Shown: positions 4,447 through 13,800 of the stretch, piece by piece
Numbering within the stretch: the first letter of the stretch is position 1
How the letters are laid out: each line of letters opens with the position of its first letter
DNA from: Thermoanaerobaculia bacterium
GTDB lineage: Bacteria > Acidobacteriota > Thermoanaerobaculia > Multivoradales > Multivoraceae
Direction: 5' to 3'
DNA length: 64,000 nt
Assembly (NCBI GenBank): GCA_963664405.1
Contig: OY761158.1
Span: forward strand, 1,984,001-2,048,000
The notes under the pieces: generated by a model
What the model saw: the letters and a program-made list of their open reading frames with translations, nothing else
Databases searched by the model: none
Told to the model about the DNA's origin: nothing
Position numbers and translations under genes: made by a program

Positions 4447-6396
4447 CTACATCGGGGGCACGAACCAGATCGGCGAGGTGAAGGCCCGCTCCTGAATCGT
4501 CGTCTGCAGGTCCGGCCGAGGCTCGACGCCGGCCCGGATCGCGTCCCAGGTCGACCAACGGCAGACCGGATTCTCGAGCACACGCACGTAGTAGAAGGCG
4601 CGCTGCGTTGGGTCGAACTCCGGGTCGGTCCAGAGCGTTTCGAGCTCTGAAGCGCCGAGGTCCGACGAGATGCTGCAGTCGCTGAGATCGACCGCCGCAC
4701 CGTTGTCGGGGCAGCGGTGAGTCTGCGCATCGGGCTCCAGGCCGTCTGAACAGGCGACGTCGAAGATGCGGTCGTGGGCCGCACCCTCCTCGACCCACCC
4801 CTTGATGACCTGCACCCGCTGCAGCGGCGCCGAGTCCGCGTCGCGAGCGGCCCAGACCAGGAAGCGCGGCGCCCGCTCACCGTCGGCGGCGAGATCGGCC
4901 CCCATCGGGACGCCGCCTTCGTAGGCCTTTGCGACCATGTCGCGATCGGAGGCGAGACCGTCGGGGTAGTCGTAACCGGCGAAGAAGCGCACCCGCATTC
5001 GCGGCCCGGTGGTCGCGAAGGTCTCCTTGCGCCGCATCGCGTCGTAGATCGACTCGCGAGTGTTCTCCTCGGCCCAGACGACAGCGAGACCGGAGGCGCC
5101 GAAGAAGCGAAGTGCCGAGTCCGTGTACACGTTGCCCTGCGCGTCGGGCTCGTCGAGAGGCACCGAGCCGCGCCGCTGCGGCGTGCCGTCGTTGATGCCG
5201 ACCTTGGAGTGAAAATTGTCCTCCTCGGGCGTCGGTCCGGCATTGTGAGTGTCGCTCGAGCCGATGAGGCCGAAGTGAAACGGATTGAAGCCCTGTTCCT
5301 CCTCGAGCAGGAGGCCGTTCATATAAGCCTCGCGAACATAGCCGTGCTTGGGCTCACTATAGAGATCGGTGCCGATGCGGTTGGGGTAGATCTCGAAGTC
5401 GGCCCACTCGTCGTTCGGAAAAAGGAGAGGATGGACCTCGGATGTGCCCTTGACCTGAGTCACTTCCACAATGGGCTCATTTCGCATCCGCAACTCGGCG
5501 TAGGCCGCGTCGAAGGGCTCTTCGCCAACCGTCTCGAGCTGGAACATGTGCCCATTCGAGCCGTTCGAGTTGTGGGGGATTGCGAGACCCTCGATACCCT
5601 GTTCGCGAAGGCCGTCGAGCCAACGCCAGAGGTCCTCTGGGTTTCTCGAGTCGGTCGATGCAAAGGGAGCCTCCGGAACCGCGCTCGAGCGAAAGATGAC
5701 GTTGCGGTGGAGGTTCCCCCGGTCCGCTGCCGAGGTCGTGTACTCGTAGCCGATCAGGGTCGTGAAGCGGCCGGGGTCGTTGTGCTGCTCTGCAGCCTCG
5801 ATGATGTCGCGCCAGGCCGCGAGCTTGGCGGAATGGATGGCGTCGGCACCCAACGCCGCGATCTCACCGCTTCTGAGTGCCTCTATCGAACGAGTGTAGC
5901 CGCCCGTATCCAGGTCTCGTAGCTCTTTGGCGAGGGGCGTTTCGCTGAGCGGGTTCTCGGGATCGTCCAAGGCGGGGAAGGTACCGAGGTAGAGACCATG
6001 GTCGGTGACCCCCATGAAGTCGAGAGGCCCGCTCTGGAGCTGAAGCGTGTGGCCACTGGGGTGGGCGACCGCTTCACCCTTGGCGTAGCGATAAGCGTCG
6101 TCGGGAGAGGCGCGGACTTTGAACATATAGGCGTCGAAAGAGTGGCGGGTGTGGACGTGAAGATCGCCGAAGTAAGCGTTGCGCAGAGAATTCGGCCCCG
6201 ATCCCTCTGAGAGGGCAGACGGGGACGAGCTCGCACCTTCCGGCTGGCGAACTTCCGTGCTCAGAGGAACAGGCGAGGGTCAAGGCAAAGATCGCCGCAG
6301 CAACACCAGGTGCAGGGGTATTCGGCGGCAGAAGTGCTCCGCCAGGTGCAGGGGTATTCGGCAGAAGAGAAGTGCCCCGGTCTTCCGATGCTTCAT
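4447..6396 (-). CDS. DUF3604 protein (PHP-like metallohydrolase motifs), 5' end disrupted
   Basis: Frame extends upstream of 6126 to NAYFGDLHVHT; TDH, GYEY, HRN, PHN, SDTH and ERAFTSPIW motifs. ATG 6396 with RBS meets an in-frame TGA (6280-6282), and the lipobox LTLAC lies in another frame. Confidence 0.8.
6306..6362 (-). repeat. Two direct copies of the transposase-associated REP-like motif
   Basis: CCAGGTGCAGGGGTATTCGGC at 6306-6326 and 6342-6362; reverse complement GCCGAATACCCCTGCACC is 16/18 identical to the 1755 and 1651 copies. Confidence 0.7.
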
Positions 6397-8825: not shown

Positions 8826-9977
8826 TCACAGGATGAAACCTTTGGTATCCAGGCCGACGAGAGTCCGTCCGTAAACCAGCGAAGCTTCATCGAAGTTGAC
8901 CGTCTGATGTTTCGTCGCCATCGTCACGTCGCGGAAAGCCTTCTGCAGCGGACTGTCGTCGAAGACCGATCTTGCACCGGTCGCAGCAATCAGACGGTTC
9001 ACAGATCGCCGACACAACTCCACCGCATAGCAGGCCTGGAACTTCGCCTCGGCGCGAAGCGGCAGCGAGTCGCTGCCGTTCGCCGCCTGCTCGAGCAGGT
9101 CGATGGCCGAATCCAGCAGCTTCTCCGCGCACAGGACTTCGGCCTTCGCCTCGGCAAAGCGAGTGTGGAGGCCGGGGCGGTCCAGCTTCTTCCTACCGGT
9201 GTATTTGTCGGACTGGACCCCCATCAGCTCACTCGCAGCATCGATCGCGCCGCGAGCGAGCCCGAGACTCGAGGCACCGGCGTGGACCGCCAGGCCCGGC
9301 ATGATCGGGATCTTGTAGGTATTCGTAGCATGCCTACTCGCCCACTCAGAACGCGCGCCGAAAAGGACGCCGCTGTCCATCACTCGGTGCTCGGGCACGA
9401 GGACCTTGTCCGCCACCACCTCGACGCTGCCGGTGCCGCGCAGGCCGAGGGCATGCCAGTTGTCGTCGAGCTCGAGATCGGAGCGCGGCACAATCGCGTG
9501 GTAGAGCCTCGGCCTCTCCTCACTGTGGTCGACCGTGCCCATCAGAAACCAGGAGCCATGGGCGGCACCGCTGACAAAACCCCAGCGGCCGGAAAGGGTC
9601 CATCCATCTTCGCGGCGCTCGATGACCCCGGCCGGAGCCAGCGAGCCCGCCGACACCAGATCCGGATCCGCCCACACCTCGTCCTGGGCCTGCTCCGGAA
9701 AGCTGGCCATGATCCAGTCATGCCCGGTGGAGACCATCAGCACCCAGGCGGCGGAGCTGCATCCTCTGGCACACTCGCTCACCATCTCGAGCATCACCCG
9801 CAAATCGCCCTCATCCCCACCGGCGCGGCGCGGAACCAGCGCGCGAAAAAGGCCCGCCTCGCGCATCGCCGCGACACTCTCATCGGCCAGGGATCGCGCA
9901 AGGTCCGAGGCTTCGGCGTGGGCGCTGAGGGTCTCGAGCAGTGTCGGACTGACAGAAGACGCGGCCGATACGTTCAT
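8826..9977 (-). CDS. Flavin-dependent monooxygenase of acyl-CoA dehydrogenase fold (HsaA/C2-like)
   Basis: LFRALVPRRAGG, LSGRWGFVSGAAH, DNWHALGLRGTGS and SPLQKAFRD motifs; start MNVSAA at 9977 after GGAG. Confidence 0.88.
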   Translation of the reverse strand: MNVSAASSVSPTLLETLSAHAEASDLARSLADESVAAMREAGLFRALVPRRAGGDEGDLRVMLEMVSECARGCSSAAWVLMVSTGHDWIMASFPEQAQDEVWADPDLVSAGSLAPAGVIERREDGWTLSGRWGFVSGAAHGSWFLMGTVDHSEERPRLYHAIVPRSDLELDDNWHALGLRGTGSVEVVADKVLVPEHRVMDSGVLFGARSEWASRHATNTYKIPIMPGLAVHAGASSLGLARGAIDAASELMGVQSDKYTGRKKLDRPGLHTRFAEAKAEVLCAEKLLDSAIDLLEQAANGSDSLPLRAEAKFQACYAVELCRRSVNRLIAATGARSVFDDSPLQKAFRDVTMATKHQTVNFDEASLVYGRTLVGLDTKGFIL

Positions 9978-10024
9978 TTCATGCTCCTGAATTGACCGGG
10001 GCCCTTCAATTTTCATGTCCTTGA

Positions 10025-10053
10025 TTGAATCCCAACCGGCCGACCGGTAGGAT
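10025..10053 (+). promoter_or_regulatory. sigma70 promoter, probably leaderless, with a palindromic operator in the spacer
   Basis: TTGAAT 10025-10030, 17 bp, TAGGAT 10048-10053, ATG at 10060 with no SD; imperfect palindrome CAACCGGCCGACCGGTAG at 10033-10050. Confidence 0.55.
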
Positions 10054-10059
10054 AACAGC

Positions 10060-11334
10060 ATGCTGACCGGAGCGACCACCACCATCACGGTCATCTCGTT
10101 GCTTCTCACCTGGGGAGGCGCCTTGCAGGAGCAGAGCGAACTGCGACCTGCGGTCATCCATCCGAAAGAGATGGTGGAGCGCCGCTTCGCCCCTAGCGCT
10201 CCGGAAGTAGGTGAGGCGATGCCGGACCTGCCGGTATACGACTCAGAGGGAGAAGAGCTGAGGTTTCGCGACCTGGTGCGAGGGCAGCACACGGTCGTGA
10301 TCCTCGGCTGTCTCACCTGACCCCCCTTCCTCTCTCTGGTCTCCCGGGTGGAGACCGTCGCGCGGGACTACACTCCGAAGGGAGTGCGCTTCTACTACCT
10401 GTACAAAGCGTTGGCGCATCCGGAGTACCACGGGTACATCACCCCTTTCACCCTGGAAGAGCGCCTGATGCACGCCAAGGAGGCGGAGCGCCGCCTGGGC
10501 TCCCGTATCCCCTGGATCGTCGACGCAATGACCAACGACCTGAAACACGCTTTGGGCTACGCACCCAACAGTGAGTTCGTCGTTGATCCCGAGGGCAAAG
10601 TGGTGCGTCGACGAGCCTGGAGCGACCCCGACGCCCTGCGAGCGGATCTCGAAGAGCTCGTCGGCGCGGTCGAAAGACCGACCCGCGTCGCGGATCTCGA
10701 CATGCCGACCCAACCGCCCCCGGCCCCCACTGTAGCCACGGGTGTAGTGCCAGGAGTCGAGGTCGCGGGGCACATGCGAGCGCTGCGCCTAACGCCCGAG
10801 CTCGAGGGCAACAAATACCCCTTCTACGTAAAGCTCCGCGCCGAGGCCGACCAGAGCTTCCTGGCCGAGGCCGAAGGTCAGATCTACCTCGGCTTCCATC
10901 TCGACCCCCTCTACGAGATGCACTGGAACAACCTCGCTCCACCTCTCGAGCTCGAGATCACGGCACCGGAAGGAGTGCGGGTGACGCCGACCAAGCTCGC
11001 GGCGACGACGCCGAAGGAAGAGGCGGACGCCGATCCTCGCGAGTTCCTCGTCCGCATCGAGGCCGACCCGGGCCAGCGAGATCCTCTGAAGCTCTCGGTT
11101 CTGTACTACGCCTGCGACAACGCCAACACTTTCTGCGTTCCGGTGCGGCAGAGCTACGCCGTGCACCTCACCGCCGACAGCGACGGTGGCAGCCCCTTCA
11201 GCCGCACCGCGATGCCGGCAGGAGAGGGCGTCCTCGGCGACATGGACACAAATGGAGATGGCACCATCGACCGCGATGAGCTGGAGGCGAAAGAAAGGGA
11301 GCTCGACGTTTTGCTCGAGCAGGCGCCCGACTAG
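10060..11334 (+). CDS. Secreted deiodinase-like thioredoxin-fold selenoprotein (Sec at 10318-10320) with C-terminal DsbD-N-like region and EF-hand
   Basis: ORFs 10060..10320 and 10348..11334 are in frame with one TGA: VVILGCLT*PPF (deiodinase GSCTUPPF type), then YLYKALAHP, ER and WIVDAMTN...GYAPNS; C-terminal YYACDNANTFCVP and DTNGDGTIDRDE. Confidence 0.88.
10338..10356 (+). promoter_or_regulatory. Putative bacterial SECIS hairpin
   Basis: GGUCUCC-CGGGU-GGAGACC, perfect 7-bp stem starting 18 nt after the UGA. Confidence 0.75.
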
Positions 11335-11345
11335 TACCAACCTCC

Positions 11346-12590
11346 ATGGACTTCAATGACTCCCCCACCGAGGCCGCCTTCCGAAACGAGGTCCGGGCCT
11401 GGCTCCAGGCCAATGCCGAGCCCAGGACCGGTCCCCCCGAGCACATCTTCACCCTTCGAGGCGACGAGGCCGAGTACGTCCGTCGCGCCAAAGTCTGGCA
11501 GGCGAAGAAGCACGACGCCGGTTACGCCGCCATCCACTGGCCGAAGGAGGACGGCGGTGGCGGCGGCACGCCGATGCAGGCCCTGATCTTCGGTGAGGAG
11601 GAATCCAGGTACCGAGTGCCACAGGGAGCCTTCACGGTCGGCATGGGGATGTGTGGACCGGTACTGAGGCTCTACGCGGACAAGCAGACCAAGGAACGCC
11701 TGCTTCCACCCCTGGTGCGGGGAGAGGACCTCTGGTGCCAACTCTTTTCAGAGCCTACCGCGGGTTCAGACCTCGCCGGTTTGCGAACCCGCGCCGAGCG
11801 CGACGGCGACTCGTGGGTAGTGAACGGCCAGAAGGTCTGGACCTCGATGGCGAACCACGCCAGCTACGGCATCCTGGTCGCGCGTCACGACCCCAGCCTG
11901 CTCAAGCATAAGGGCCTCACTTTCTTCTGGCTCGATATGAAAAGCCCCGGCATAGAGGTCAAACCGATCAAGCAGATCTCGGGCGCCGCGGGTTTCAACG
12001 AGGTCTTCTTCACCAACGTTCGCATTCCCGACTCCCAGCGCCTCGGTAAAGTCGGCGAGGGCTGGCAGGTCTCGCTGGCGACGCTGATGAACGAGCGAGT
12101 GGCGGTGTCCAGCCCTGGACCGCCTGACTTCGACGATATCTTCGCGTTGGCGCGAGATCTCGGCCTCGTCAACGGACCCGCCGGCACGGCGGTGCGATCC
12201 CGCCTCGCCGACTGGTACGTCGAGGCGCAAGGATTGCGCTTGACCGGTGCCCGCACCCTGACGCGACTCAGCCGCGGAGAGAATCCTGGGCCTGAGTCGT
12301 CGATCGAGAAAGTCGTCGCCTCCACCAAGCAGCAGGAGATTGCGTCGTTCGGCACCGACTTGCTCGAATATGCCGGCGTGCTCCTGAACCAGGAGACACT
12401 GCCGGGCGAGGGCTTGTTCCAAACCGGATATCTCTCGTCTCCCGGCCGTCGCATCGCCGGAGGAAGCACCGAGATCTTGCGCAACGTGATCGCCGAACGC
12501 GTCCTGGGCTTGCCGGGAGACATCCGCGTCGACCGCGATCTCCCTTTCAATGAGATCCCGACGGGGAACAGTCCCCCACCCTCGCGATGA
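11346..12590 (+). CDS. Acyl-CoA dehydrogenase
   Basis: WCQLFSEPTAGSDLA, VNGQKVWTS, FNEVFF and IAGGSTEILRNVIAERVLGLP. Confidence 0.95.
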   Translation: MDFNDSPTEAAFRNEVRAWLQANAEPRTGPPEHIFTLRGDEAEYVRRAKVWQAKKHDAGYAAIHWPKEDGGGGGTPMQALIFGEEESRYRVPQGAFTVGMGMCGPVLRLYADKQTKERLLPPLVRGEDLWCQLFSEPTAGSDLAGLRTRAERDGDSWVVNGQKVWTSMANHASYGILVARHDPSLLKHKGLTFFWLDMKSPGIEVKPIKQISGAAGFNEVFFTNVRIPDSQRLGKVGEGWQVSLATLMNERVAVSSPGPPDFDDIFALARDLGLVNGPAGTAVRSRLADWYVEAQGLRLTGARTLTRLSRGENPGPESSIEKVVASTKQQEIASFGTDLLEYAGVLLNQETLPGEGLFQTGYLSSPGRRIAGGSTEILRNVIAERVLGLPGDIRVDRDLPFNEIPTGNSPPPSR

Positions 12591-13216
12591 CCGACCACAA
12601 CGCCGACACTGCGGGCAGTGCCTCCGCCGGGCTTCCGAGTACGACGCGGACAGAGGAGATCTACCAGGCCGCCGTCGCCCTCTTCCTCGAGCGCGGCTAC
12701 GACGCAACGCCCCTGTCCGTCATCGCAGCGAAGCTCGGGCTCACCAAGGCCGGTCTCTACCACCACTTCGAGAGCAAAGAGGACCTGCTCTTCCACATCC
12801 ATCGCCACCTGATGACAGAGCGTCTGTTGCCAGTGATCGAGGCAGCCGAACGAGAGTCGGATCCGGAGCTCCGCCTGCGACAATACATCTGCGACTTCAC
12901 CGCGCTGATGGCCTCTGACCCCGCTATCCGCCTATTGATCGAAGAATCGAAGCGGCTCTCGCCCGAGCATCTCGATGCGATCCGTGCGGTTTGGAGACGG
13001 GGCTACCAGTTGATGCGAAGCTCGATCGAGGAGCTCAAACAATCGGGCCGCTGCAAGCAGACACTAGACCCGACCTACGCCGCCTTCGCGGCGATCGGGA
13101 TGTGTACCTGGACCCTCTACTGGTTCGATCACGACCGCCCAGACACGATTCACGAGATCTCGGAGGCTTTCTCGAGCATCTTTCTGAGCGGTGTTCTCGA
13201 AGATGAGGCCGGCTAG
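12587..13216 (+). CDS. TetR/AcrR family regulator
   Basis: AAVALFLERGYDAT...IAAKLGLTKAGLYHHFESKEDLL. Confidence 0.95.
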   Translation: MTDHNADTAGSASAGLPSTTRTEEIYQAAVALFLERGYDATPLSVIAAKLGLTKAGLYHHFESKEDLLFHIHRHLMTERLLPVIEAAERESDPELRLRQYICDFTALMASDPAIRLLIEESKRLSPEHLDAIRAVWRRGYQLMRSSIEELKQSGRCKQTLDPTYAAFAAIGMCTWTLYWFDHDRPDTIHEISEAFSSIFLSGVLEDEAG

Positions 13217-13227
13217 GGGCACAATCG

Positions 13228-13800
13228 TCACTCTTCGGCAGAGCTCAGAAACGTCTTCAGCCAGCCTCTCGCCCGCTGCCAGTCGCGCTGGGCGGTACGC
13301 AGAGAGATAGACAGAGCCTCCGCCGTCTCTTTCTCGGAGTAGCCTGCAAACAAGCGGCACTCCACGACCTGGACCAGGCGAGGATCGTAGGACGCGAGCT
13401 TCTCCAGCGCTTCGTCAACAGCGAGGAAGCCCTCCGCCTGTGCGGCGACGGCGACCCTGCCTTCGTCGAGCTCGAGATCTGGCTTGCCGCCACCACGCTT
13501 GTGCCGCGTCTTGCGTTTGGCGTAGTCCACCAGAATCTGACGCATAGCGCGGGCGGCGATGGCGAAGAAGTGGGAGCGGTCCGCGAAGGTGGCCGCCCTC
13601 TGTGCCACCAGCTTGATGTAGGCCTCGTGAACGAGCCCGGTGGTGTCGAGCGTGTGCCCTGGGCGCAATCGCCGCAGCTGCCCGCGGGCGATGCGCCGTA
13701 GGTCTTCGTAGATCAGTGGCACCAGCCGATCGAAGGCGCCCTCCTCACCGCGGACATGGGCTTGGAGGATCCCGGTCAGGTCTTCGCTGGACGATGACAT
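13228..13800 (-). CDS. ECF sigma factor (TIGR02999 type)
   Basis: LIYEDLRRIARGQLRR...TLDTTGLVHEAYIKL...AARAMRQILVDYA...RTAQRDWQRARGWL. Confidence 0.93.
   Translation of the reverse strand: MSSSSEDLTGILQAHVRGEEGAFDRLVPLIYEDLRRIARGQLRRLRPGHTLDTTGLVHEAYIKLVAQRAATFADRSHFFAIAARAMRQILVDYAKRKTRHKRGGGKPDLELDEGRVAVAAQAEGFLAVDEALEKLASYDPRLVQVVECRLFAGYSEKETAEALSISLRTAQRDWQRARGWLKTFLSSAEE

Follow-up and report, generated by a model that had tools for sequence, protein, structure and literature searches.

What does a reading frame encode that is crossed by a single TGA and otherwise open from end to end, and what kind of enzyme would result if this TGA stands for selenocysteine (Sec)? The locus that raises these questions lies in a 64,000-nucleotide stretch of contig OY761158.1 from a Thermoanaerobaculia bacterium (assembly GCA_963664405.1), here called the window, and all coordinates below count from its first letter. 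A preliminary description, made from the letters and their open reading frames, proposed a secreted deiodinase-like selenoprotein extended by a DsbD_N-like domain and an EF-hand. By combining surveys of homologous loci with profile searches, fold comparisons and AlphaFold2 models, we find that the TGA is almost certainly a Sec codon, that the Sec residue sits in a deiodinase-like thioredoxin fold, and that this fold is joined in one chain to a DsbD_N-like domain with an invariant cysteine pair of its own.

Results

The frame opens at ATG 10060, the first start past an in-frame TAG (10048-10050), and closes at the TAG of 11332-11334 (Table 1). Translation with TGA as Sec bears out the earlier reading of one 424-residue frame that is open on both sides of the TGA, and full-length homologues align end to end with this product of 10060-11334. 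The active site that had been pointed out, GGC TGT CTC ACC TGA CCC CCC TTC, read as GCLT-U-PPF, occupies 10306-10329, with the TGA at 10318-10320. All the other named blocks were found as well: Y115-KAL-AHP121, E134-R135, V154-D-A-M-T-N159 and G166-Y-A-P169, followed by the Cx6C pair C352-DNANTF-C359 and the EF-hand loop at residues 396-407. AlphaFold2 returns a confident model of the full-length protein (mean pLDDT 89.6, pTM 0.82). In this model the N-terminus contains a hydrophobic helix (residues 5-19) of low pLDDT. Most homologues, inspected by eye, start with basic residues, continue with a hydrophobic run and end it in A-x-A or AQ; the n-region of this copy holds no Lys or Arg. From such signal-peptide-like N-termini across the family we infer export from the cytoplasm. 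The data thus strongly support a single gene at 10060-11334 for a selenoprotein that is, by inspection of its sequence, predicted to be exported.

Table 1. Features of the selenoprotein locus, in window coordinates
Feature	Coordinates	Strand	Details and basis
Shine-Dalgarno-like AGGA	10049..10052	+	7 nt 5' of the start codon; read from sequence
Selenoprotein gene	10060..11334	+	424 codons, then the TAG stop; codon 87 is Sec; translation with TGA=U open throughout
Probable signal peptide, residues 1 to about 23	10060..10128	+	MLTGATTTITVISLLLTWGGALQ; judged by eye
Thioredoxin-fold, deiodinase/peroxiredoxin-like domain, residues about 35-205	10162..10674	+	Pfam, PDB profile search, Foldseek, hhalign
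Cys84 codon TGT, the C of CxxU	10309..10311	+	Invariant in 61/61 members and likewise in the Cys-form alignment
Sec codon TGA, residue 87	10318..10320	+	Conserved TGA, Cys homologues, contigs from 4 runs
SECIS-like hairpin	10338..10356	+	GGUCUCC / loop CGGGU / GGAGACC, 7 bp; begins 17 nt past the UGA
DsbD_N-like beta-sandwich, residues about 236-375	10765..11184	+	AlphaFold2, hhalign
Cys352-x6-Cys359 pair (CDNANTFC)	11113..11136	+	Both Cys invariant in 61/61; aligned with the Cys pair of DsbD_N
EF-hand calcium-binding loop, residues 396-407, then helix 405-421	11245..11280	+	DTNGDGTIDRDE; Pfam, model

Several lines of evidence converge on the decoding of the TGA. Among 80 related genome loci the triplet is TGA in 78 of the 78 that are informative at the aligned site, two matches stopping short of it, and the same holds for 79 of 79 informative metagenome loci (80 loci, one not parsed); the metagenome scan was seeded with a 16-sequence alignment of Cys forms and still returned TGA loci. 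Genomes and metagenomes together make 157 informative loci, spread over several phyla, and all 157 have TGA. Residues 40-96, on the upstream side of the TGA, are strongly conserved, as are residues 40-135 overall. Cysteine takes the Sec position (GCLTCP) in P0007, P0064 and P0096 and also in numerous cluster representatives, among them P0126, P0129, P0130 and P0133. A different codon at 10318 (TGC, TGT or TGG), which the preliminary description had named as refuting its reading, does not appear: the TGA is kept in contigs from four sequencing runs belonging to four coded studies. No RNA run is found among the sequencing runs listed for the locus. A strain of about 97% identity shows 31 listed differences affecting 27 codons and 12 amino acids, with no stop or frameshift. 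The genome also encodes the machinery for Sec insertion, namely SelA (343.6 bits), tRNA-Sec with anticodon TCA (72.4 bits), SelB (SelB-wing_3 at 63.5 bits in a 669-residue frame) and SelD (362.1 bits), the gene for SelD itself containing one TGA.

Downstream of the UGA lies a hairpin of the kind expected for a bacterial selenoprotein, a stem-loop close to its 3' side whose small apical loop contains G/U. It is the minimum-free-energy structure of 10318-10362, at a stability no better than that of shuffled sequence (z 0.22). Across 79 sequences 89.5% of the cells pair and four of the seven pairs show changes on both sides; none of 500 shuffles reaches the observed pairing, and controls slid along the alignment pair at 34-56%. 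Pair 21-39 illustrates the covariation, with CG in 52, GC in 8, UA in 5, UG in 3 and AU in 1 of 75 distinct rows, and RNAalifold recovers the identical helix. Because the hairpin overlaps coding sequence (V-S/P ... E-T), part of its conservation reflects constraint on the protein. An Rfam scan of 10200-10500 gave chance-level matches only and no SECIS family. With conserved TGA, a covarying hairpin, the Sec machinery and Cys homologues all in agreement, we regard it as close to certain that the UGA at 10318-10320 encodes Sec, as first proposed. One readable locus departs from TGA: G075 (P0006) carries TCA at the site and keeps all seven hairpin pairs, as a recent change or an error would explain.

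To which family does the Sec-containing domain belong? The Pfam deiodinase model T4_deiodinase (PF00837) matches this copy with E 1.3e-5 and 25.0 bits, below its gathering cut-off of 27, and 51 of 61 relatives at E <= 0.01 (best 2.3e-6). Just as many family members match the models Redoxin and AhpC-TSA; this copy scores 17.5 bits with Redoxin (PF08534, cut-off 26.6) and 16.6 bits with AhpC-TSA (PF00578, cut-off 26). NCBIfam NF038285, the bacterial deiodinase-like family, gives 59.1 bits, under a curated cut-off of 250. In a profile search of PDB sequences, Dio3 (4tr3) ranks first (E 1.4e-5) and ResA/TlpA-like proteins come second (ResA, E 8.2e-4). Aligned by hhalign with the bacterial FGSYT-U-PPF deiodinase-like selenoproteins, the family reaches 99.6% and E 4.9e-24 over 161 columns at 27% identity, with Sec on Sec. 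The deiodinase-like fold of the preliminary description is thereby upheld. Structural comparison by Foldseek gives TMt values of 0.82-0.84 for ResA, 0.75 for Dio2 and 0.72 for Dio3. A similarity search with residues 40-96 yielded 12 candidates, none at E <= 0.001, and was uninformative.

At the active site, T86-U87-P-P-F90 aligns with the TCPPF of the Sec-to-Cys Dio3 crystal construct. The HMMER alignment sets U87 on the first Cys of the ResA CxxC, and in the model Sec87 caps the N-terminus of helix 88-107, where ResA and Dio3 carry their nucleophilic Cys or Sec. The arrangement of the second thiol is distinct. Cys84 lies three residues ahead of Sec87 and is invariant in 61 of 61 aligned members, in line with the CxxU site described earlier, so that the TlpA/ResA-type CxxC is absent (second thiol at -3, Phe90 at +3), and so is the peroxiredoxin motif P-x-x-x-T-x-x-C/U, with Cys84 rather than Thr at -3 from Sec. 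His120, which aligns with the His of the deiodinase EAHP block, is invariant (61/61). The Glu of that block had been noted as missing, and L118-A-H-P indeed stands in its place, with L118 likewise invariant in 61 of 61. In the aligned homologues Cys84, Cys352 and Cys359 are each invariant (61/61), and the Sec site has Cys forms.

The middle domain, modelled alone, reaches a pLDDT of 93.0. When the family profile is aligned by hhalign with 25 genuine DsbD_N domains, the match is 95.8% (E 6.8e-9, 116 columns) and the Cys pairs coincide, which supports the DsbD_N-like assignment of the preliminary description; Pfam and fold alone do not single it out. The Pfam model DsbD_N (PF11412) matches 9 of 61 relatives (best 6.9e-5) and gives no match to this copy at E <= 1. 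Foldseek finds nDsbD (1l6p, 1jpe) at E about 1e-3 and 19% identity, and VIA-align scores nDsbD at Z 6.6-6.9, under adaptin ears at Z 8, Ig-like folds not being separated. The middle-domain profile retrieved no PDB sequence at E <= 10. Elsewhere the genome holds eight further DsbD_N matches, some within frames of 659-864 residues.

The C-terminal loop D396-T-N-G-D-G-T-I-D-R-D-E407 fits the pattern D-x-[DN]-x-[DN]-G-x-[ILV]-x-x-x-E, and the EF-hand seen at the outset is thus canonical by sequence, though this copy scores below the Pfam cut-off (EF-hand_5, E 9.9e-5, 22.1 bits against 25.9). EF-hand models (PF13202, PF00036) match 33-35 of 61 relatives, and the number of loops per relative ranges from 0 to 6. 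EF-hands usually act in pairs; the single loop of this copy is unpaired. It probably binds calcium, which could serve folding, anchoring or regulation.

The gene neighbourhood was also surveyed. No partner emerges from conserved neighbours: the best non-self cluster occurs in 9 of 79 loci, and the two larger neighbourhood clusters were discarded as antisense shadow ORFs of the selenoprotein gene itself. A scan of 9800-13400 for promoters and terminators gave no promoter-like and two terminator-like sites, not above shuffled sequence.

Discussion

How does this protein relate to selenoproteins already described? Its closest relatives, the bacterial deiodinase-like proteins (NF038285), share the T-U-P-P-F, AHP, TLEER, D-x-M-x-N and V-I-D-x-x-G blocks and a UGA-encoded Sec. 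They differ in the motif, which is G-S-Y-T-U there and G-C-L-T-U (CxxU) here, in EAHPEDGW, which becomes LAHPE, and in P-E-R, which becomes P-N-S. The N-terminus is signal-peptide-like here and hydrophobic and anchor-like in some of the bacterial deiodinase-like proteins, and the DsbD_N-like domain and the EF-hand are additions relative to them. Against Dio1-3 (PF00837; 4tr3 for Dio3, 9h48 for Dio2), the best sequence relatives of solved structure, T-U-P-P-F and AHP align, and Foldseek superposes Dio2 and Dio3 at TMt 0.72-0.75 with 20-21% identity over 176-179 columns. In the animal enzymes, however, the Cys stands at -2 and not at -3, and the Leu found here in the AHP block is a Glu. Animal deiodinases are membrane-anchored, whereas the present protein is predicted to be exported and soluble and has extra domains; a thyroid-hormone substrate is not expected in bacteria.

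The middle domain is homologous to the N-terminal domain (nDsbD) of the DsbD/ScsB system (PF11412; 1l6p, 1jpe, 1vrs, 1jzd, 1z5y), with the Cys pair aligned, but there is no membrane domain here, and a Sec enzyme fused in cis takes the place of the partner. The Cys spacing is Cx6C, in contrast to the Cx4C of the 25 aligned DsbD_N domains, and H-W-N-N replaces the G-W-H of DsbD_N. nDsbD swaps disulfides with thioredoxin-fold partners, and the protein described here joins both types in one chain. The top Foldseek match of the full model (E 1.7e-10) is the C-terminal ectodomain of DipZ (Rv2874) from Mycobacterium tuberculosis (2hyx, 5cyy), in which a thioredoxin-like domain is likewise followed by a beta-sandwich domain. 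With TM-scores of only 0.31-0.41, an rmsd of about 14 Å and 10-12% identity, the two are alike in the types of domain and not in their arrangement. To our knowledge DipZ has no Sec, and we know of no Cys pair in its second domain.

The family has already been predicted computationally, and the novelty of the present gene is modest in this respect. Bacterial deiodinase-like selenoproteins were described in a 2005 survey (Zhang, Fomenko & Gladyshev, PMC1088965) and again in GOS data in 2008 (PMC2398784). A 2021 paper (PMC9402790) reports, from marine microbial data, fusions of the types "deiodinase-like + EF-hand" and "Prx-like + Pfam11412", and also remarks on further conserved Cys of no assigned function. 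The building blocks are shared, as two separate fusions in that paper, and the passages and figure legend compared do not state the combined deiodinase-like, DsbD_N and EF-hand architecture. The catalogue table of a 2026 review gives "UxxC" for the deiodinase-like family, which does not fit the CxxU protein here, and contains neither the three-domain architecture nor the CxxU motif. A literature search for the motif CLTUP returned no relevant paper, and the literature searched holds no experimental datum for any family member.

Could the TGA nonetheless be a real stop, which would leave two genes (86 and 328 residues), a pseudogene or a sequencing error? The public gene call (P0002) is of this form, with 328 residues starting at GTG 10348, past the TGA; most of the 120 matches listed span only 65-77% of the query, and G075 with its TCA may be counted on the same side. 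Yet the TGA shared by all 157 informative loci across several phyla, the strong conservation of residues 40-96, the covarying hairpin, the Sec machinery, the Cys forms that read through and the agreement of four independent assemblies make a two-gene or pseudogene reading extremely improbable, and we reject it. Very unlikely, too, is a selenoprotein that works as an extracytoplasmic chaperone or detoxification factor, its CxxU site holding a soft metal or metalloid (Hg, Cu, As, Se/Te) without redox catalysis. Four invariant thiol or selenol groups and a metal-binding EF-hand would suit such a role, and Sec in several bacterial selenoproteins may serve as a metal ligand according to the 2026 review; the fold and motifs, however, are those of catalytic Sec/Cys enzymes, and no conserved metal-resistance genes lie nearby.

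Among catalytic roles, a true reductive dehalogenase is one candidate, in which Sec87 would strip iodine or bromine from halogenated phenolics outside the cell and the resulting selenenyl halide would be recycled through Cys84 and the DsbD_N-like pair. Homology of the catalytic domain to deiodinases and bacterial deiodinase-like proteins, with T-U-P-P-F identical and AHP, TLEER and D-x-M-x-N conserved, argues for it, as do the invariant His120 and the Foldseek result, in which no single-domain match aligns over a greater length than Dio2 and Dio3 and only 2ywi (23%) exceeds them in identity. We nevertheless consider this role unlikely: the Glu of EAHP is replaced by an invariant Leu118, the P-E-R block, whose Arg in the Dio3 structure reportedly helps to clamp the iodothyronine, reads P-N-S, the Pfam deiodinase score is below cut-off with Redoxin and AhpC-TSA matching as many members, and the bacterial homologues were judged unlikely to act on thyroid hormones (Zhang et al. 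2005, PMC1088965). Also unlikely, if slightly less so, is an envelope thiol-disulfide oxidoreductase of the TlpA/ResA/CcmG type that would reduce or isomerise exported proteins, with the DsbD_N-like domain as electron entry port or substrate docking site. The top target-normalised TM-scores (0.79-0.84) and the second-best PDB sequence matches belong to ResA and other TlpA-like reductases, the known partners of nDsbD are thioredoxin-fold proteins, and nDsbD complexes (1jzd, 1vrs, 1z5y) are among the fold matches of the middle domain. The register, however, is not CxxC, since Sec takes the first-Cys position with Phe90 at +3 and the second thiol at -3, and the deiodinase-like relation (E 4.9e-24) is far stronger than that to ResA (E 8.2e-4).

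We set out a Sec-based internal relay as a working mechanism. The UGA at 10318-10320 is almost certainly decoded by SelB and tRNA-Sec, helped by the hairpin at 10338-10356, and the mature protein consists of three modules, a thioredoxin fold of the deiodinase/peroxiredoxin type, a beta-sandwich of the DsbD_N type and one EF-hand. Outside the cytoplasm, Sec87 may attack an oxidising small molecule, for which a hydroperoxide is our first choice and a halogenated aromatic our second. The invariant Cys84 would then resolve the oxidised selenium to a selenenyl-sulfide, the invariant Cys352 and Cys359 of the fused DsbD_N-like domain would reduce this bond, and a membrane electron transporter of the DsbD/ScsB/CcdA type could re-reduce the pair in trans; proteins of this type are encoded elsewhere in the genome. 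For the relay as a whole, whose internal step is read from the architecture, we see the chances as evenly poised. A bolder suggestion, which we put forward as improbable, takes the protein for a deiodinase-type Sec enzyme that is recycled by a dedicated disulfide relay and not by a free small thiol; it would be self-contained and calcium-dependent, and would act outside the cytoplasm of marine and sediment bacteria as a reductive dehalogenase or peroxidase. If the suggestion were true, the fusion would be a 'Rosetta stone' for the deiodinase superfamily and an experimentally tractable model for the question, still under debate, of what regenerates deiodinases. The architecture suggests, in concrete and testable form, how a deiodinase-type selenoenzyme may be recycled outside the cytoplasm.

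The family is widespread: at least 1451 protein clusters match, and matching stretches were confirmed 271 times in species-representative genomes and 403 times in metagenome contigs. Among the matches listed, public gene calls cut the present gene, and likewise most relatives, at the Sec codon and name them 'EF-hand domain-containing protein' or 'hypothetical protein', and the protein passes no Pfam or NCBIfam model; as a result, the active site of a widespread, predicted-exported enzyme is missing from protein databases. The genome has three copies of the family, the gene described here among them and one apparently split, and elsewhere it holds four genuine deiodinase-like selenoprotein genes. 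Together with the Sec-containing SelD, these copies suggest an unusually large selenium investment of this Acidobacteriota-like genome.

Results

Our analysis shows or strongly supports a single gene at window positions 10060-11334 with selenocysteine (Sec, U) at residue 87, three homologous modules and four invariant redox residues, C84, U87, C352 and C359. The letters that encode the motif GCLT-U-PPF lie at 10306-10329, and when the TGA among them (10318-10320) is read as U the frame stays open on both sides, as the preliminary description stated, from ATG 10060 to TAG 11332-11334 (424 residues). This ATG is the first start past an in-frame TAG at 10048-10050 and has AGGA 7 nt upstream. Under translation table 11 the stretch yields two ORFs, of 86 aa (10060-10320) and of 328 aa from GTG 10348, and the 328-aa piece is present in public collections (homologue P0002). 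The other blocks named in that description are also found, namely YKALAHP (residues 115-121), ER (134-135), VDAMTN...GYAP (154-169), CDNANTFC (352-359) and a canonical EF-hand loop (see table), and we confirm the observation made on this stretch.

The TGA is almost certainly a selenocysteine codon, as five lines of evidence agree. A scan for relatives, in which each species was represented by one genome, confirmed 271 loci, and among the best 80 of these the aligned codon is TGA in 78, within G-C-(L/F)-(T/S)-U-(P/G)-x-(F/Y) and with conserved protein sequence on either side; the matches of the remaining two, L078 and L083, stop short of the Sec site. The MAGs that contain these loci are labelled Acidobacteriota/Vicinamibacteria, Planctomycetota, Gammaproteobacteria, Verrucomicrobiota, Gemmatimonadales, Latescibacterota and Krumholzibacteriia. 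With Cys-form proteins as seeds, a metagenome scan yielded 80 loci, 79 with TGA and one unparsed by the pattern. Cysteine occupies the Sec position (GCLTCP) in homologues P0007, P0064 and P0096, and a search of 1.84 billion representatives with a profile of residues 36-135 returned 1525 proteins (E <= 0.001); many of these, such as P0126, P0129, P0130 and P0133, are full-length Cys forms that share the downstream domain. Contigs from four sequencing runs, one from each of four coded studies, span the Sec site: two are identical to the window across 10060-10912, and two represent a strain ~97% identical, with 34 differing letters, of which 31 are listed and none of those listed falls in 10318-10320. 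In the gene these 31 listed differences affect 27 codons and alter 12 residues, introducing no stop and no frameshift. Given the five lines of evidence, neither was TGC, TGT or TGG found at 10318, where the contigs of all four runs keep TGA, nor do homologues end at this codon as separate proteins, their flanks being conserved and the Cys forms reading through.

A hairpin, GGUCUCC / CGGGU / GGAGACC, starts 17 nt past the UGA (10338-10356). In an alignment of 79 sequences, 75 of them distinct, 89.5% of cells are paired and four of the seven pairs vary on both sides; none of 500 column shuffles matched the real hairpin on any of five measures, pairing fell to 34-56% when the partner was shifted by 1-3 columns, and RNAalifold recovered the identical helix. 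The outermost pair, both columns of which are third codon positions, is CG in 52 rows, GC (the pair of the window) in 8, UA in 5, UG in 3 and AU in 1. As caveats, the arms code for conserved V-(S/P) and E-T, the window hairpin as a single sequence folded no better than shuffles, and no Rfam model matched the region.

Some individual sequences depart from the common pattern. At the Sec position, locus L140 (G075:C7:448300-449950, minus strand; protein P0006) has a Ser codon, TCA, together with a perfect hairpin (7/7 pairs) identical to that of the window; either TGA mutated recently to TCA, or an error arose in sequencing or polishing. The 140-aa cluster representative P0127 reads GCLTWPPF, with Trp in the Sec/Cys place, which may stem from a TGA translated as Trp by some pipeline or from TGG. 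A minor contig in runs X1 and X4 has a C inserted after 10913 and one base missing at 10918, a compensating indel pair that stems from a variant or else from a related organism.

The own genome, a single contig of 6.78 Mb, encodes SelA, a tRNA-Sec with anticodon TCA and a SelB wing domain within a 669-aa frame. Its best SelD match (L011, G000:C1:388007-388930), with one in-frame TGA, is a probable selenophosphate synthetase that contains Sec; another SelD-like match (C1:565727-566650) has no in-frame TGA. Four deiodinase-like selenoprotein genes (see table) continue downstream of their Sec motif with EAHP(E/S)DGW and score 164-180 bits on the NCBIfam model deiodinase_rel (NF038285), short of its cut-off of 250 bits since the match is confined to the C-terminal half of the model. 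Two further copies belong to the CLT-U-PPF family studied here, and the split in one of them, L139, suggests a frameshift or a misassembly. Over the N-terminal stretch compared, L139 closely resembles locus L026, from a MAG labelled Gammaproteobacteria. Eight other DsbD_N matches occur in the genome, some within long frames.

Coordinates of the EF-hand loop in the window and of related genes in the own genome (G000, contig C1)
Feature	Location	Strand	Description
EF-hand loop DTNGDGTIDRDE	window 11245-11280	+	residues 396-407, translated sequence
Deiodinase-like selenoprotein gene L133	G000:C1:3119653-3120165	-	FGSYT-U-PPF, one in-frame TGA
Deiodinase-like selenoprotein gene L136	G000:C1:5870624-5871109	-	FGSYT-U-PPF, one in-frame TGA
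Deiodinase-like selenoprotein gene L137	G000:C1:1582518-1583036	+	FGSYT-U-PPF, one in-frame TGA
Deiodinase-like selenoprotein gene L138	G000:C1:2219521-2220000	+	FGSYT-U-PPF, one in-frame TGA
Family copy L135	G000:C1:2329806-2331131	+	intact, CLT-U-PPF, two EF-hand loops
Family copy L139	G000:C1:1238355-1239679	-	CLT-U-PPF, split over two frames near 1239203-1239212

The catalytic domain (about residues 35-205) matches Pfam T4_deiodinase with 25.0 bits against a cut-off of 27, ahead of Redoxin and AhpC-TSA, and deiodinase_rel with 59.1 bits against the cut-off of 250; the 61 aligned full-length relatives give weak matches to Redoxin (57), AhpC-TSA (55) and T4_deiodinase (51). Among PDB sequences the family profile ranks mouse Dio3 first (E 1.4e-5) and ResA next (E 8.2e-4). 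With the confident AlphaFold2 model (pLDDT 89.6, pTM 0.82), the top Foldseek match is the two-domain DipZ ectodomain at E 1.7e-10, yet with TM 0.31-0.41 and an rmsd of ~14 Å, followed by ResA (TMt 0.82-0.84) and then Dio2 (TMt 0.75) and Dio3 (TMt 0.72) at 20-21% identity. Compared with a profile of nine FGSYT-U-PPF proteins, drawn from the own genome and from others in the phylum, two from genomes flagged unpublished being left out, the family profile aligns with 99.6% probability (E 4.9e-24, 161 columns, 27% identity), Sec on Sec. This match, which bears out the proposed likeness to deiodinases, and the family-wide differences indicate, at the level of sequence, that the domain is a genuine yet distinct branch of the deiodinase-like group.

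Where the bacterial deiodinase-like proteins have Ser at -3 from Sec, the family has Cys84; the Glu of EAHP, reported missing from the window copy, is replaced by Leu118 consistently across the family, and P-E-R is replaced by P-N-S. The site had also been described as CxxU, and Cys84 is indeed invariant at -3 from Sec87, but the register is not that of thioredoxin CxxC: the HMMER alignment to ResA places Sec87 on the first Cys and Phe90 at +3, so that "CxxU" falls outside it. Compared with the peroxiredoxin motif PxxxTxxC/U (2026 review), Cys84 stands at the Thr position.

The middle domain (about 236-375), modelled alone, is a confident beta-sandwich (pLDDT 93.0). Its fold matches include the DsbD_N domain, nDsbD (Foldseek E ~1e-3, 16-20% identity; VIA Z 6.6-6.9), and the solved nDsbD complexes 1vrs, 1jzd and 1z5y, but adaptin ears score equally or higher and the fold by itself is thus indecisive. 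A search of PDB sequences with this domain found nothing, and Pfam DsbD_N matches 9 of the 61 relatives, the window copy not being among them. Set against 25 genuine DsbD_N domains from the own genome and 20 relatives, the family profile aligns with 95.8% probability (E 6.8e-9, 116 columns), placing Y-F-A-C-D-D-A-x-T-F-C-x-P on Y-Q-A-C-D-E-x-x-C-L-P and V-H-W-N-N on G-W-H. Cys352 and Cys359 are invariant (61/61) and, with the Cys pairs aligned, we accept the DsbD-N-like extension proposed earlier.

Residues 1 to ~23 are modelled, with low confidence, as a hydrophobic helix and, judged by eye, are a predicted signal peptide; most relatives begin with a basic residue and a hydrophobic run with an A-x-A or AQ end, and the window copy is without the basic residue. 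In sequence and model the tail consists of the single EF-hand loop, which falls below Pfam cut-offs, and a helix, and relatives carry 0 to 6 loops, C-terminal or N-terminal. Among the architectural variants (P0064, P0122, P0128, P0136, P0138 and P0139), P0064 carries an esterase/lipase fused at its C-terminus, P0122 (808 aa) repeats the entire two-domain module in tandem, and some forms have long N-terminal EF-hand regions. Among PDB sequences, the EF-hand tails of the family best match lanmodulin (6mi5) and the related lanthanide-binding EF-hand proteins 8fns, 8dq2 and 9pi2 (E 1e-3 to 6e-2), a likeness that may reflect nothing more than tandem bacterial EF-hands.

Discussion

The preliminary reading of the protein is supported, and we further infer its export and a relay cycle. 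In this cycle, Sec87, which caps the N-terminus of helix 88-107, would attack an oxidant, the oxidised selenium would be resolved by Cys84 to give a selenenyl-sulfide, the Cys pair of the DsbD_N-like domain would reduce it, and a DsbD/ScsB/CcdA-type membrane system would recharge this pair in trans. The last step is proposed by analogy with the DsbD system, in which nDsbD exchanges disulfides with thioredoxin-fold partners. We regard the case for the mechanism as a whole as evenly balanced.

What might the substrate be? A hydroperoxide is our favoured, though tentative, candidate, and protein disulfides seem unlikely. Halogenated aromatics, as for a deiodinase, appear more doubtful again, as the Glu and Arg positions are replaced in the family; a Dio3 structure paper reportedly ascribes a role to the Arg of the P-E-R block in that enzyme.

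By sequence comparison the family is real and mis-annotated, and its kind was already predicted computationally. In 2005, bacterial deiodinase-like selenoproteins were described from Sargasso Sea data (4 sequences and Cys homologues, with a redox function suggested; PMC1088965). The GOS survey counted 22 sequences in 2008 (PMC2398784), and a 2021 paper lists "deiodinase-like + EF-hand" and "Prx-like + Pfam11412" as two fusions. Table 1 of the 2026 review has the entry 'Deiodinase-like protein, PF00837, UxxC' and none combining CxxU, DsbD_N and EF-hand.

The selenoprotein gene sits between acyl-CoA dehydrogenase genes. The upstream one is divergent, on the minus strand, and ends at ATG 9977; the downstream one starts 11 nt past the selenoprotein stop and is followed by a TetR-family gene (together 11346-13216) that overlaps it by 4 nt (12587 vs 12590), and both possibly form an operon with the selenoprotein gene. 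Conservation of the neighbourhood was not found among 79 loci, the commonest neighbour cluster, once the gene itself and antisense shadow ORFs are set aside, occurring in 9. Long antisense ORFs, which look like shadow ORFs of a GC-rich gene, overlap the selenoprotein gene (8826-10316, 10243-10773 and 10448-10942, all minus strand) and have similar counterparts opposite the homologues (neighbour clusters 2 and 3). Elsewhere in the window, 4447-6126 on the minus strand encodes a 559-aa DUF3604 protein (E 3.5e-212), of a family of unknown function.

Of 201 genomes sampled evenly from the phylum, at least ten match at E <= 1e-20, a floor set by a stricter first look, and none of the sampled genomes of the same family or order is among them. 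The ten carry TGA in nine cases and TCA in one (G075). The distribution of the gene is thus patchy.
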